Shown here piece after piece: positions 32,657 through 34,898 of a DNA stretch of 64,000 bases. The DNA is from Escherichia phage sutha, in sequence record PV245934.1; one strand, written 5' to 3'. The notes beneath the pieces were generated by a model. The model was given only the letters and a program-made list of their open reading frames with translations, was not told the origin of the DNA and made no database searches. A program made the translations under genes and the position numbers. Every line of letters begins with the position of its first letter. Positions within the stretch are counted from its first letter, which is position 1.

Positions 32657-32664
32657 TATTTATA
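32657..32664 (-). promoter_or_regulatory. late promoter (TATAAATA) upstream of CTS internal-protein gene
   Basis: tatttata on plus about 40 nt upstream of start at 32617. Confidence 0.5.
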
Positions 32665-32665
32665 C

Positions 32666-32696
32666 CAAAAAGCCCCAACCTTTCGGTCGGGGCTAA
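32666..32696 (-). terminator. rho-independent terminator, copy B of 30-bp direct repeat
   Basis: Identical to copy A. Confidence 0.55.
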
Positions 32697-32745
32697 GCCT
32701 TGCGGCAACCTTGTCGGGGTTCCACCTGCTAAGGCAAGTGTTTGT

Positions 32746-32837
32746 ACGAAACGCCGGGATTCGAACCCGGTTATTAAGCAGTTGACGCTACTCAATATTT
32801 TTAAAAGGCCATATCTCGACCATATCCGAACGTTCCG
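32746..32837 (-). ncRNA. tRNA-like structured RNA (possible stable small RNA or degenerate tRNA)
   Basis: T-arm-like CCGGG-TTCGAAT-CCCGG with pairable acceptor ends; no clean anticodon arm. Confidence 0.3.
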
Positions 32838-32978
32838 TCAAAAACGCTACTCGGCTTACGGCAAAGATATTTCCTCGAATCGATAATTCGGTGCGCCGTT
32901 TCAGCTGTGATAGTAAAGAACCAGAACACAGTAAAACTGTGGGAGGAACTATACTCCAGGGAACATCAGTCCGACGAC

Positions 32979-33533
32979 TTACCGGTAGCGACCCGGTTTC
33001 TCATTTGGTATTTCAAATTGTGTAGATTTAGTATCTAATTTTTTAACTATGGAACTTATGTCATGAAAGAAAAACCATTCACTATTTATATGGTCCTGAT
33101 TATAAATGCTGTGCATATATTTTTCAAGTTCTACTGCATCCTGGGAATATCTAAATGATACTATTTTAAAACTTTTAAACGGTGAAAATGTATTTGCTGT
33201 TATAACTCTAACATCAGGTTCTATACTTCTTCCTATTTTATAATAATTAGGATTTGTAGTATCTACCATTATGTATACGAAAGCCTGTCGATAGCTTTTT
33301 TCTATATCAAATTCATCTTTAAATTTCAAAAGATTTAGGGCGGCAGTCCTACAAAATACTTTCCATTTTGACAAGCGTTTGGCTTTAGTCATAGAAAAGA
33401 ATTTTTTCTTATCTGTTATTTTAAGAAAAGCAACATTTTCAATTAGTTCTTGTGTTATTTCAAAATTACCATGGTATATTAATCCAGCTTTTATAGCCAA
33501 ATTAATTTGGTCCCAGTCTACATCACTTCTCAT
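32979..33533 (-). CDS. hypothetical protein inside the tRNA region (weak GIY-YIG/T5orf172-like motif)
   Basis: 184 aa; NYYKIGRS motif mid-protein; between tRNA-like RNA and tRNA-Arg. Confidence 0.45.
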   Translation of the reverse strand: MRSDVDWDQINLAIKAGLIYHGNFEITQELIENVAFLKITDKKKFFSMTKAKRLSKWKVFCRTAALNLLKFKDEFDIEKSYRQAFVYIMVDTTNPNYYKIGRSIEPDVRVITANTFSPFKSFKIVSFRYSQDAVELEKYMHSIYNQDHINSEWFFFHDISSIVKKLDTKSTQFEIPNEKPGRYR

Positions 33534-33554
33534 AATATTATTCTCTCAATAATT

Positions 33555-33631
33555 TGGCCAGGGTGAAAGGATTCTAACCTTTAACCTGCGGTTTAGAGGA
33601 CCGCTACTCTATACAATTGAGTTACACCCCG
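33555..33631 (-). tRNA. tRNA-Arg (anticodon UCU)
   Basis: Manual cloverleaf: acceptor CGGGGTG/CACCCTG, T-arm AAAGG-TTAGAAT-CCTTT, anticodon loop CCUCUAA, encoded CCA. Confidence 0.75.
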
Positions 33632-33757
33632 TAATTAGTTCACAGCAATACCTACTCCAACAATCAAGATGTCTTCACACGAAATTAAGAGAAGAGTGAT
33701 CAGTTCAACCCCTATAACCGCGTCAAGTAGATATTAATGTGACAATTGTCACAAATT

Positions 33758-33832
33758 TGGCGGACGTGATAGGATTCGAACCTATAACCAATCGCTTAAC
33801 AGGCGATCGCTCTGCCATTGAGCTACACATCC
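33758..33832 (-). tRNA. tRNA-Asn (anticodon GUU)
   Basis: Clean cloverleaf: D-arm GCTC-AATGGCA-GAGC, anticodon arm ATCGC-CUGUUAA-GCGAT, T-arm ATAGG-TTCGAAT-CCTAT, encoded CCA. Confidence 0.75.
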
Positions 33833-33836
33833 AAAT

Positions 33837-33923
33837 TGGTGGGGAGTGGTGGAGTCGAACCACCCGAGTCGCAATGACAATGGATTTACAGTCCACACCG
33901 CTACCTCTACGGGATAACTCCCC
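33837..33923 (-). tRNA. tRNA-Tyr (anticodon GUA), long variable arm
   Basis: 87 nt; anticodon loop CUGUAAA; T-arm GTGG-TTCGACT-CCAC; acceptor GGGGAGT/ACTCCCC; encoded CCA. Confidence 0.7.
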
Positions 33924-33932
33924 TAATTAATT

Positions 33933-34009
33933 TGGTGACCCAGACCAGATTTGAACTGATAACCTTTCCCTTATGAGGGGACTGCTGCTAACCATTGAGC
34001 TACAGGGCC
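33933..34009 (-). tRNA. tRNA with CAU anticodon (Met or Ile2)
   Basis: Anticodon loop CUCAUAA; T-arm ATCAG-TTCAAAT-CTGGT; imperfect acceptor and D stems; encoded CCA. Confidence 0.6.
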
Positions 34010-34010
34010 T

Positions 34011-34086
34011 TGGTGCTGATTGACGGAATCGAACCGCCGACGTCCTCATTACAAGTGAGGTGCTCTACCTACTGAGCTAAATCAGC
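34011..34086 (-). tRNA. tRNA-Thr (anticodon UGU)
   Basis: Acceptor GCTGATT/AATCAGC, D-arm GCTC-AGTAGGTA-GAGC, anticodon loop CUUGUAA, T-arm GGCGG-TTCGATT-CCGTC, CCA. Confidence 0.8.
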
Positions 34087-34091
34087 AAAAC

Positions 34092-34181
34092 TGGCGGAGG
34101 CGATAGGATTTGAACCTATGAGTCGCCGGAGCGACTGCCGGTTTTCAAGACCGGTGCATTAAACCACTCTGCCACGCCTCC
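34092..34181 (-). tRNA. tRNA-Ser (anticodon UGA), long variable arm
   Basis: 90 nt; anticodon arm CCGGT-CUUGAAA-ACCGG; T-arm ATAGG-TTCAAAT-CCTAT; CCA. Confidence 0.8.
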
Positions 34182-34183
34182 AG

Positions 34184-34257
34184 TCTCCGCGGCAGGATTT
34201 GAACCTGCGACATTCTGCTCCCAAAGCAGACGCTCTACCAAACTGAGCTACACGGAG
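34184..34257 (-). tRNA. tRNA-Pro (anticodon UGG)
   Basis: Anticodon arm TCTGC-UUUGGGA-GCAGA; T-arm GCAGG-TTCAAAT-CCTGC; CCA not encoded. Confidence 0.8.
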
Positions 34258-34267
34258 TAAATTAAAT

Positions 34268-34341
<74 letters not shown>

Positions 34342-34346
34342 AAATT

Positions 34347-34433
34347 TGGTGCGAGAAGTGGGACTCGAACCCACAAGGAAATCATTCCGCAGCATTTTAA
34401 GTGCTGTGCCTTTACCAATTTGACCATTCTCGC
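34347..34433 (-). tRNA. tRNA-Leu (anticodon UAA), long variable arm
   Basis: 87 nt; anticodon arm CAGCA-CUUAAAA-TGCTG; T-arm GTGGG-TTCGAGT-CCCAC; CCA. Confidence 0.8.
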
Positions 34434-34434
34434 G

Positions 34435-34507
34435 CTGGGAATAAAGGACTCGAACCTTTGCATCTAGCAGTCAAAGTGCTATGCCTTACCAACTTGGCTA
34501 ATTCCCA
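34435..34507 (-). tRNA. tRNA-Gln (anticodon UUG)
   Basis: Acceptor TGGGAAT/ATTCCCA, anticodon arm TAGCA-CUUUGAC-TGCTA, T-arm AAAGG-TTCGAGT-CCTTT; CCA not encoded. Confidence 0.8.
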
Positions 34508-34604
34508 ATTATTAACAAAGGCTCTCAAGCAAGAACCCTTGATGATAGAGGGTATTAATCAGTGCGATATGAGTTAATAATAACAAATAATTCTTAAAGC
34601 ATAT

Positions 34605-34898
34605 TTACCATTTATGATAATACATGTTTACGATGCATTCAAGACCCAAAGGATTCTTGAAAATATCATATTCAAGAGGACCTTTTTCTGTTTCAATAAA
34701 GAAATCAAAGTTAACTGTGTTAAATTTACGGTCTTCCTTAACTAATTTAACCTGAGAAGATGAACGGTCAATATAAACCTTTTCAACTTCAAAGTATGTT
34801 AAAATGCCATAATCATCAATCAAGGCTTTAGCCGCGTCTTGATCATATTTATATCCATTTTCAATGGATGATACTTTCGCGTAAAGAATCATTATCAA
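34605..34898 (-). CDS. hypothetical protein
   Basis: 97-aa ORF. Confidence 0.4.
   Translation of the reverse strand: MIMILYAKVSSIENGYKYDQDAAKALIDDYGILTYFEVEKVYIDRSSSQVKLVKEDRKFNTVNFDFFIETEKGPLEYDIFKNPLGLECIVNMYYHKW

Follow-up and report, generated by a model that had tools for sequence, protein, structure and literature searches.

Predicted tRNA-Tyr and tRNA-Asn genes of the T2-type accessory block in the tRNA array of Escherichia phage sutha

The tRNA array and its surroundings

The stretch analysed here, called the window below, is 64,000 nucleotides of Escherichia phage sutha DNA (sequence record PV245934.1; one strand, 5' to 3'). ARAGORN finds exactly ten tRNAs in a minus-strand array at 33555-34507, which in transcript order are Gln, Leu, Gly, Pro, Ser, Thr, a tRNA with a CAU anticodon, Tyr(GUA), Asn(GUU) and Arg(UCU) (Table 1). 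This list is identical to the ten cloverleaves, with their anticodons, that had been proposed in the original prediction, whose span of interest, 33758-34009, is made up of the Asn, Tyr and CAU tRNAs. All ten of the array tRNAs reach the gathering score of 29 bits of the Rfam tRNA model (RF00005), with Asn at the top of the array (74.1 bits) and Tyr at the bottom (30.3 bits). Gaps between most of the genes are 1-10 nt, and the Asn-Arg gap is 126 nt (33632-33757). The array is probably part of a single operon with the stable RNA genes rnaD and rnaC, because all of these share one strand, are closely spaced, are homologous to the T4 operon and are followed by a single terminator after rnaC; the terminator-like hairpin at 32671-32694 thus appears to close a tRNA/stable-RNA operon.

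Table 1. Features of the tRNA region (window coordinates)
Feature	Position	Strand	Basis	Remarks
tRNA-Gln(UUG)	34434-34507	-	ARAGORN	core T4-type
tRNA-Leu(UAA)	34347-34433	-	ARAGORN	core T4-type
tRNA-Gly(UCC)	34268-34341	-	ARAGORN	core T4-type
tRNA-Pro(UGG)	34183-34257	-	ARAGORN	core T4-type
tRNA-Ser(UGA)	34092-34181	-	ARAGORN	core T4-type
tRNA-Thr(UGU)	34011-34086	-	ARAGORN	core T4-type
tRNA, CAU anticodon	33933-34009	-	ARAGORN	homologue of T4 tRNA-Ile by T4 annotation
tRNA-Tyr(GUA)	33837-33923	-	ARAGORN, Rfam	87 nt; long variable arm, A73, encoded CCA
tRNA-Asn(GUU)	33758-33832	-	ARAGORN, Rfam	75 nt; G73, encoded CCA
Inferred preferred SegB recognition site	33756-33782	-	reconstructed from the text of PMC2330249	27 bp, GGTTCGAATCCTATCACGTCCGCCAAA
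Conserved structured element	33643-33739	-		97 nt, within the 126-nt Asn-Arg spacer
tRNA-Arg(UCU)	33555-33631	-	ARAGORN, Rfam	divergent allele
184-aa ORF (ORF184)	32979-33533	-	ORF list, Pfam, PHROG 5032	T5orf172/MUG113 (GIY-YIG-superfamily) domain
rnaD homologue (species 2 stable RNA)	32890-33004	-		98/124 identical to T4 rnaD; ends conserved, middle diverged
rnaC homologue (species 1 stable RNA)	32745-32883	-		137/139 identical to annotated T4 rnaC
Intrinsic-terminator-like hairpin and T run	32671-32694	-	terminator scan	10-bp stem with 7 GC pairs, then TTTTT

The 2-kb tRNA region, which matches 979 phage records, and the 24-kb stretch around it are both about 95-97% identical to Tequatrovirus phages of E. 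coli, Shigella and relatives, and no record closer to the window than this was present in the collection searched; by sequence, sutha is a T4-like phage of the genus Tequatrovirus.

The tRNA-Tyr and tRNA-Asn genes

Two well-formed tRNAs with an encoded CCA had been noted between the CAU tRNA and tRNA-Arg, and ARAGORN indeed folds both Tyr and Asn into full cloverleaves that score above the Rfam threshold. Tyr clears that threshold narrowly (30.3 vs 29 bits); its D stem contains one C.C mismatch and its variable arm has 3 bp and a 5-nt loop, and the best model for it in an E-value scan is tRNA-Sec, another long-armed tRNA, at 35.4 bits, which is under that model's threshold of 47. The anticodon loops, CUGUAAA in Tyr and CUGUUAA in Asn, are the same as those of E. 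coli tyrT and asnT. The identity elements of E. coli TyrRS are A73, the GUA anticodon and a long variable arm, and those of AsnRS are G73 and the GUU anticodon; read against tyrT/tyrV and asnT, the elements for the cognate E. coli synthetase are present in both phage tRNAs, and charging of both is predicted.

The Asn cloverleaf was compared among three alleles, those of the window, of UFV-AREG1 (a second natural phage allele, UFV-AREG1/Kha5h) and of E. coli asnT. Standard pairs are found in 63 of 63 cells, and 11 of the 21 pairs are changed on both sides; none of 500 shuffles matches this covariation, and when the structure is slid by 1-3 columns only 29-43% of the cells remain paired, so the pairing pattern is far beyond chance. 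For Tyr, the alleles of Shinkou and Ent31 have an anticodon stem altered on both sides, as read from the sequences rather than formally counted; the six-sequence Tyr alignment (A4), in which the E. coli D arm is misaligned and one locus is off by one base, was left out of the pair counts. The Rfam scores, cloverleaves, identity elements and covariation rule out a pseudogene reading of the two, and Tyr(GUA) and Asn(GUU) are real bacterial-type elongator tRNA genes.

Relationship to the T4 tRNAs and stable RNAs

The T4 annotation holds eight tRNAs (Gln, Leu, Gly, Pro, Ser, Thr, Ile and Arg), the very set given in the original prediction, and neither Tyr nor Asn is among them, so the suggestion of a repertoire larger than that of T4 stands. 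Its picture of the T4 map was mistaken. The T4 transcript order is Gln, Leu, Gly, Pro, Ser, Thr, Ile, segB, Arg, rnaD (species 2), rnaC (species 1); the Ile-Arg interval is thus taken up by segB, a GIY-YIG homing-endonuclease gene, and the stable RNAs lie downstream of tRNA-Arg, not between Ile and Arg. That misplaced position was the sole support for the alternative it offered, in which the Tyr and Asn cloverleaves correspond to the stable RNAs of species 1 and 2. In the window the two tRNA genes precede Arg, whereas T4 rnaD and rnaC are annotated past it; separate homologues of both stable RNAs are present at 32745-33004; and in a BLAST comparison of the window tRNA region with the T4 region, Tyr and Asn fall within a stretch, 33012-33935, for which no T4 match was found, between 33936-34618 (Gln to the CAU tRNA), which is 96.9% identical to T4, and 32662-33011 (rnaD, rnaC and the terminator), which is 90% identical. 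We consider it practically certain that the two are not stable-RNA counterparts. Because the window keeps its own rnaC and rnaD homologues, Tyr and Asn are additional genes and not replacements.

The CAU tRNA is identical to T4 tRNA-Ile at 73 of 74 positions over the 74 nt annotated in T4, the window call being 3 nt longer; it is the T4 tRNA-Ile homologue, which would decode AUA after modification, and is called Met in some annotations. The tRNA-Pro gene is another allele than that of T4 (62/75 identical).

Occurrence in related phages

The window tRNA-Asn is identical to that of T2 at all 75 positions, and its tRNA-Tyr matches that of T6 at 86 of 87 positions and that of T2 at 85; the single difference from T6 turns an anticodon-stem G-U pair (T6) into G-C (window). 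The Tyr+Asn segment (166 nt) is covered to 80% or more in at least 446 phage records, mostly at more than 95% identity, and 260 match the Tyr+Asn query at 99% identity or above. The order CAU-Tyr-Asn-Arg is common to the window, T2 (record AP018813), Kha5h, U115 and UFV-AREG1, and the curated Kha5h record annotates exactly these ten tRNAs together with rnaC. T6 has the CAU tRNA and Tyr, then segB, with Asn absent; in teqskov both Tyr and Asn are missing and a Thr/Asn hybrid gene is present, which marks recombination between tRNA genes. In both position and near-identical sequence, the window Tyr and Asn genes are members of the T2-type accessory tRNA block. The novelty implied when they were first pointed out therefore does not hold up: T2 and T6 carry them too, as do hundreds of Tequatrovirus genomes, and they have been on record since a 2008 paper (PMC2330249). 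The two tRNAs are already known as sequences and, in the case of Tyr, as function, and finding them in sutha matters little in itself, since it rediscovers a T2/T6-type repertoire that has been annotated and examined in two experimental papers. Only the spacer element and the T5orf172 cassette described in the next two sections might repay further work.

A structured element in the Asn-Arg spacer

The core of the spacer between Asn and Arg is found in 355 phage records, at 95-99% identity in Tequatrovirus and 80-87% in Karamvirus and Jiaodavirus, with a partial match in one Vequintavirinae phage, W70. All its occurrences are within tRNA arrays, nearly all of them immediately 5' of a tRNA-His(GUG) gene; in W70 it is between Gly and Gln. 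In the fold predicted by RNAalifold a stem of 12 bp closes the element, a hairpin of 4 bp lies on the 3' side, and some 50 nt in the centre are almost invariant. Among eight distinct variants 98% of the cells are paired and seven pairs change on both sides, a count reached in 1 of 500 shuffles, and sliding the structure by 1-3 columns leaves 0-2 such pairs. The closing stem and the 3' hairpin are thus supported by covariation; in neither of the two central helices does a pair change on both sides. The single-sequence fold has a z of -2.25.

A covariance model of the element has one match in the window, at 33643-33739 (113.7 bits), and it found no other copy elsewhere in the window or in the tRNA-region loci of T4, T6, T2, Kha5h, ESCO13 and VR7. 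No Rfam family matches the spacer at E<=1 or at gathering score. A bacterial origin was rejected, since neither 5,426 E. coli genomes nor 185,579 species-representative genomes contain a match. A metagenome scan gave 15 loci, eight of which (L029, L030, L032, L034 and L036-L039) fit the model with scores near those of known variants, and the other seven have no model match at E<=0.01; the IMG/VR matches to a looser pattern (L022-L025) are chance ones that neither align nor have tRNAs nearby. Together the metagenome and IMG/VR loci added little or no new diversity.

A promoter in the spacer was also rejected: in a sigma-70 scan the minus strand of 33632-33757 has no hit, and over the region the scan gives 15 promoter-like sites against 13.9 in shuffled sequence, i.e. 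no excess. A MotA-box-like TGCTGT in the spacer is, by eye, not accompanied by a properly spaced -10 element. The phage tRNA-His gene of the relatives encodes T, not G, at position -1. Our best guess is that the element may be a small RNA that is set free when the flanking tRNAs are processed, like rnaC and rnaD, or else a leader linked to tRNA-His.

tRNA-Arg and ORF184

The window is without tRNA-His; in place of the His gene, the Arg allele found with it in relatives (Arg-A) and a 116-aa ORF, it has the divergent tRNA-Arg(UCU) (Arg-B) and ORF184. This Arg scores 59.3 bits with the Rfam model, has the T-loop UUAGAAU and the D-loop AAUUGUAU, and has only 49 positions identical to T4 tRNA-Arg. 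The C-terminal half of the ORF184 product matches Pfam MUG113 (E=1e-8) and T5orf172 (E=2.9e-6), which makes it a candidate free-standing homing endonuclease, and the last 26 nt of the ORF overlap the rnaD homologue. Only 18 records cover at least 80% of the Arg+ORF184 cassette. Gaprivervirus VR7 and phage VR26 are among them, with 94-95% identity, which suggests horizontal movement of a homing-endonuclease-like unit with its flanking tRNA. ORF184 may be the mobile element by which tRNA-His and the Arg allele were displaced; at least 186 records cover at least 80% of a His+Arg-A query.

SegB and turnover of the locus

The tRNA regions of T2L, RB1 and RB3 were sequenced by Brok-Volchanskaya et al. 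2008 (PMC2330249), who showed that T4 SegB prefers to cut at a sequence of 27 bp within the tRNA-Asn gene of T2L. When the T4 derivative B20 was crossed with T2L, segB was present in 99.6% of the progeny and a T2L region of about 1250 bp (tRNA-Met, Tyr, Asn and Arg) was excluded (PMC2330249). The same paper reports the tRNA region to be dispensable for laboratory growth and phage development. Its text describes the site as 27 bp with 5' GGTTCRANTCC, 3' CCAR and the positions G6, A16, G18, A26 and A27. Minus-strand 33756-33782 of the window, GGTTCGAATCCTATCACGTCCGCCAAA, fits every one of the features given there; this candidate site covers the T arm of the Asn gene, the 3' end of the gene and 2 further nt, its exact boundaries being a reconstruction from that description. 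A phage carrying such a predicted preferred target should lose its Tyr-Asn-Arg block on co-infection with T4.

The locus exists in many states: segB in T4, Tyr and segB in T6, an extra ORF in T2, His, Arg and ORF116 in U115, Arg-B and ORF184 in the window, and the Thr/Asn hybrid deletion in teqskov. Taken by itself this mosaic, along with the 99.6% inheritance that SegB secures for its own allele in B20 x T2L and the non-essential nature of the region for phage development, might mean that Tyr and Asn are nearly neutral passengers, whose presence is set by the last homing-endonuclease cassette to arrive and whose sequences are under weak selection. We think this improbable. The two phage Asn alleles differ at many stem positions with all pairs kept, which requires the cloverleaf to be under purifying selection; both genes retain their identity elements; and the 260 records at 99% identity or more likewise argue against it. 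Since the block is dispensable in the laboratory and parts of it have been lost in T4, T6 and teqskov, its benefit is probably conditional, and a dispensable, patchy block fits such a conditional benefit combined with turnover driven by homing endonucleases.

Codon usage and supply

Codon usage was tabulated from 68 non-overlapping, heuristically chosen window ORFs (17,502 codons) and compared with a reference of only 41 ORFs (14,727 codons) taken by the same selection rule from one 50-kb piece of E. coli K-12. Per thousand codons, AAT occurs 46.6 times in the window and 13.4 in the E. coli sample (3.5x) and TAT 34.8 and 14.0 times (2.5x); the values for all Asn codons are 62.4 and 37.3 (1.7x) and for all Tyr codons 45.9 and 25.5 (1.8x). 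The twelve most enriched window codons are AGA, ATA, TCA, GGA, ACA, AAT, ACT, TTA, TCT, CCT, AGG and TAT, and all twelve are readable by the ten phage tRNAs if standard wobble and host-like U34 and lysidine modification are assumed, the reading of NNU codons by U34 tRNAs resting on that host-like wobble modification. His codons are not enriched (CAT 0.97x, CAC 0.30x). This usage fits the classical codon-supply role for Tyr and Asn, which come next in line after the eight T4 specificities.

We are therefore largely confident in the following explanation: Tyr and Asn are functional elongator tRNAs of a T2-type operon variant that raise tRNA supply, and T4 lost out on them where segB took their position. 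Both would share a minus-strand transcript with the other eight tRNAs, rnaD and rnaC, and the precursor would be cut by host RNase P and 3' processing enzymes, as in established T4 tRNA biology, so that more Tyr- and Asn-decoding tRNA should be available during infection. One reason for the added supply would be constant: by the counts above, the AT-rich phage uses UAU and AAU much more than its host. The other would be conditional, namely depletion of tRNAs by host nucleases, which has been shown for T6 tRNA-Tyr against Septu (see below) and which may extend to Asn. For Asn, the one published test examined was negative: tRNA-Asn of phage SP15 did not rescue phages from PrrC170. Points that weigh against the explanation are the narrow Rfam margin and the D-stem C.C mismatch of Tyr, and the relative instability described for T6 tRNA-Tyr, which Septu cleaves as well (PMC13096335). 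Tyr and Asn would be missing from T4 because segB occupies their position; published work has SegB cutting preferentially inside the tRNA-Asn gene of segB-less relatives, with ensuing replacement of the Met/Ile-Tyr-Asn-Arg block by gene conversion (PMC2330249), and the window has this Asn gene in unaltered form.

A counter-defence role

The accessory tRNAs of this clade, Tyr, Asn and His, all have G34-U-N anticodons, and tRNAs with such anticodons are the class cleaved by colicin E5. This common feature, and the lack of His codon enrichment, which makes the tRNA-His of relatives hard to explain by codon demand, raise the question of whether Tyr and Asn, with the tRNA-His of most relatives, serve mainly as spares that replace host tRNAs destroyed by defence nucleases, codon usage being of minor importance. 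Septu cleaves tRNA-Tyr in its variable arm, and T6, in which the tRNA is expressed according to northern blots and tRNA-fragment sequencing, escapes it when SegB drives the amplification of the tRNA-Tyr gene in tandem (Chihara et al. 2026, PMC13096335). Overexpression of T6 tRNA-Tyr, which is one nucleotide off that of the window, rescues infection under Septu, deletion of the tRNA-rich region sensitises T6, and T4, a phage without a tRNA-Tyr gene, does not escape (PMC13096335). In addition, T5 tRNA-Tyr neutralises retron-Eco7 (Azam et al. 2024, PMC11555353).

Other results weigh against spares as the main function. T6 tRNA-Tyr is itself cut by Septu, and single-copy wild-type T6 is still restricted (PMC13096335). 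The Tyr and Asn anticodon loops are identical to those of the host and so do not belong to nuclease-resistant variants; AAT and TAT are among the most over-used window codons, which codon demand explains directly; and no tRNA-Asn-directed nuclease is documented in the literature examined. We judge it rather unlikely that replacement of cleaved tRNAs is the main function of the pair. Because the anticodon loops are host-like and Septu cuts T6 tRNA-Tyr too, any defence benefit would come from quantity and not from resistance to cleavage. As part of the supply role preferred above, the 86/87 identity to T6 suggests a counter-defence role for the window tRNA-Tyr, which may help against defences that cleave tRNA-Tyr.

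A broader version, in which Tyr, Asn, the 97-nt spacer RNA and, in most relatives, His make up a counter-defence cassette and not simply a codon-compensation one, is a speculation on which we would not wager at even odds. Were it true, the spacer element would be a stable small RNA of phage tRNA operons that has not been described before, either excised between tRNAs like T4 rnaC and rnaD or acting as a 5' leader in the maturation of phage tRNA-His.

Comparison with known tRNA operons

The T4 operon is on the same strand, has the same flanking genes (trna.2-4 and e.8) and is closely similar over both matching parts, Gln to Ile (96.9%) and rnaD/rnaC/terminator (90%); between these parts T4 has segB and another tRNA-Arg, whereas the window has Tyr, Asn, the spacer, Arg-B and ORF184. 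The T2/T2L block (PMC2330249) is like that of the window in its CAU-Tyr-Asn-...-Arg order followed by the stable RNAs, in the absence of segB and in its intact inferred SegB site. T2 differs in that its Asn-Arg gap is 4 nt, Thr is absent and an ORF lies between Ser and the CAU tRNA; the window, for its part, keeps Thr and has the 126-nt spacer with its structured element, the other Arg allele and the 184-aa GIY-YIG-like ORF.

T6 tRNA-Tyr (PMC13096335) lies in the same place after the CAU tRNA as its near-identical window counterpart, but there it is followed by segB and Asn is absent. Because the window has no segB, the SegB-driven amplification route of T6 would be unavailable to it in cis. 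Finally, the common 11-tRNA Tequatrovirus haplotype (for example U115, G29 and AR1) agrees fully or almost fully with the window in Tyr, Asn and the structured spacer, and the difference lies past the spacer, where that haplotype has tRNA-His(GUG), the Arg-A allele and the 116-aa ORF and the window is without His.

Structured spacer element and tRNA-His

The spacer between tRNA-Asn and tRNA-Arg contains a 97-nt conserved element that is found in 355 phage records, which cover at least three Straboviridae genera and one Vequintavirinae phage. Its setting is a tRNA array in every case, and it mostly lies immediately 5' of tRNA-His. Compensatory changes support its 12-bp closing stem and 3' hairpin, and its 50-nt core is near-invariant. 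It matched no Rfam family and nothing in bacterial genomes (5,426 from E. coli and 185,579 species representatives), and could be either a tRNA leader or a new stable small RNA.

In most relatives tRNA-His(GUG) is directly 3' of this structured spacer (for example at 1151–1227 of L003, the tRNA region of phage U115); it is absent from the window, in which His codons are not enriched (CAT 0.97x, CAC 0.30x). E. coli HisRS normally requires the G-1 of tRNA-His; in the relatives' gene a T precedes G1 (…TTAAT, then GTGGCCG…), so the usual encoding of G-1 is lacking.

Features of the tRNA region and of related phage loci
Feature	Position	Strand	Remarks
rnaD (species 2) homologue	32890–33004	-	
184-aa ORF	32979–33533	-	T5orf172/MUG113 domain (GIY-YIG superfamily)
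tRNA-Arg(UCU)	33555–33631	-	divergent allele
97-nt conserved element	33643–33739	-	inside spacer 33632–33757
tRNA-Pro(UGG)	34183–34257	-	
tRNAs with long variable arm, GUU anticodon	L012 905–989, L013 1032–1116, L014 1133–1218		Karamvirus, Jiaodavirus, Phapecoctavirus phages

GIY-YIG-like cassette and stable RNAs

The 184-aa ORF is flanked by tRNA-Arg and rnaD, and overlaps the 5' end of the latter by 26 nt. Only 18 phage records contain this ORF and the adjoining Arg allele at a coverage of ≥80%; among them is Gaprivervirus VR7 (94% identity). The pair appears to be a mobile homing-endonuclease cassette that has taken the place of tRNA-His and of the Arg-A allele and 116-aa ORF (ORF116) that follow it in the common Tequatrovirus haplotype. 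The rnaD homologue keeps the 5' and 3' ends of its T4 counterpart around a diverged centre (98/124 identical), and the rnaC (species 1) homologue is identical to that of T4 at 137/139 positions; neither RNA has an Rfam family. In one relative's annotation a 94-nt stretch of this stable-RNA region, 3' of tRNA-Arg, is wrongly called tRNA-Lys.

Divergent tRNA alleles

Window tRNA-Arg(UCU) is identical to that of T4 at only 49 positions. Because its T-loop, UUAGAAU, has A in place of the usual C56 and its D-loop, AAUUGUAU, is without GG, the sequence suggests that a U-A tertiary pair would replace G19-C56; Kha5h tRNA-Arg has the same two loops. Window tRNA-Pro is a swapped allele (62/75 identical to T4) within an otherwise conserved block; the neighbouring Ser, Gly, Leu and Gln tRNAs are 97–100% identical to T4. 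Encoded CCA is missing from tRNA-Pro and tRNA-Gln.

Phage teqskov has a hybrid gene (L005, about 1440–1540) that joins the 5' half of tRNA-Thr to the 3' half of tRNA-Asn. The intervening Thr 3' half, CAU tRNA, Tyr and Asn 5' half were deleted by recombination between similar D-arm sequences of the two tRNA genes. The Asn tRNAs of the Karamvirus, Jiaodavirus and Phapecoctavirus phages are 85–86 nt long with a long variable arm and G73, and have a class-II-like body, unlike the 75-nt tRNA-Asn of the window.
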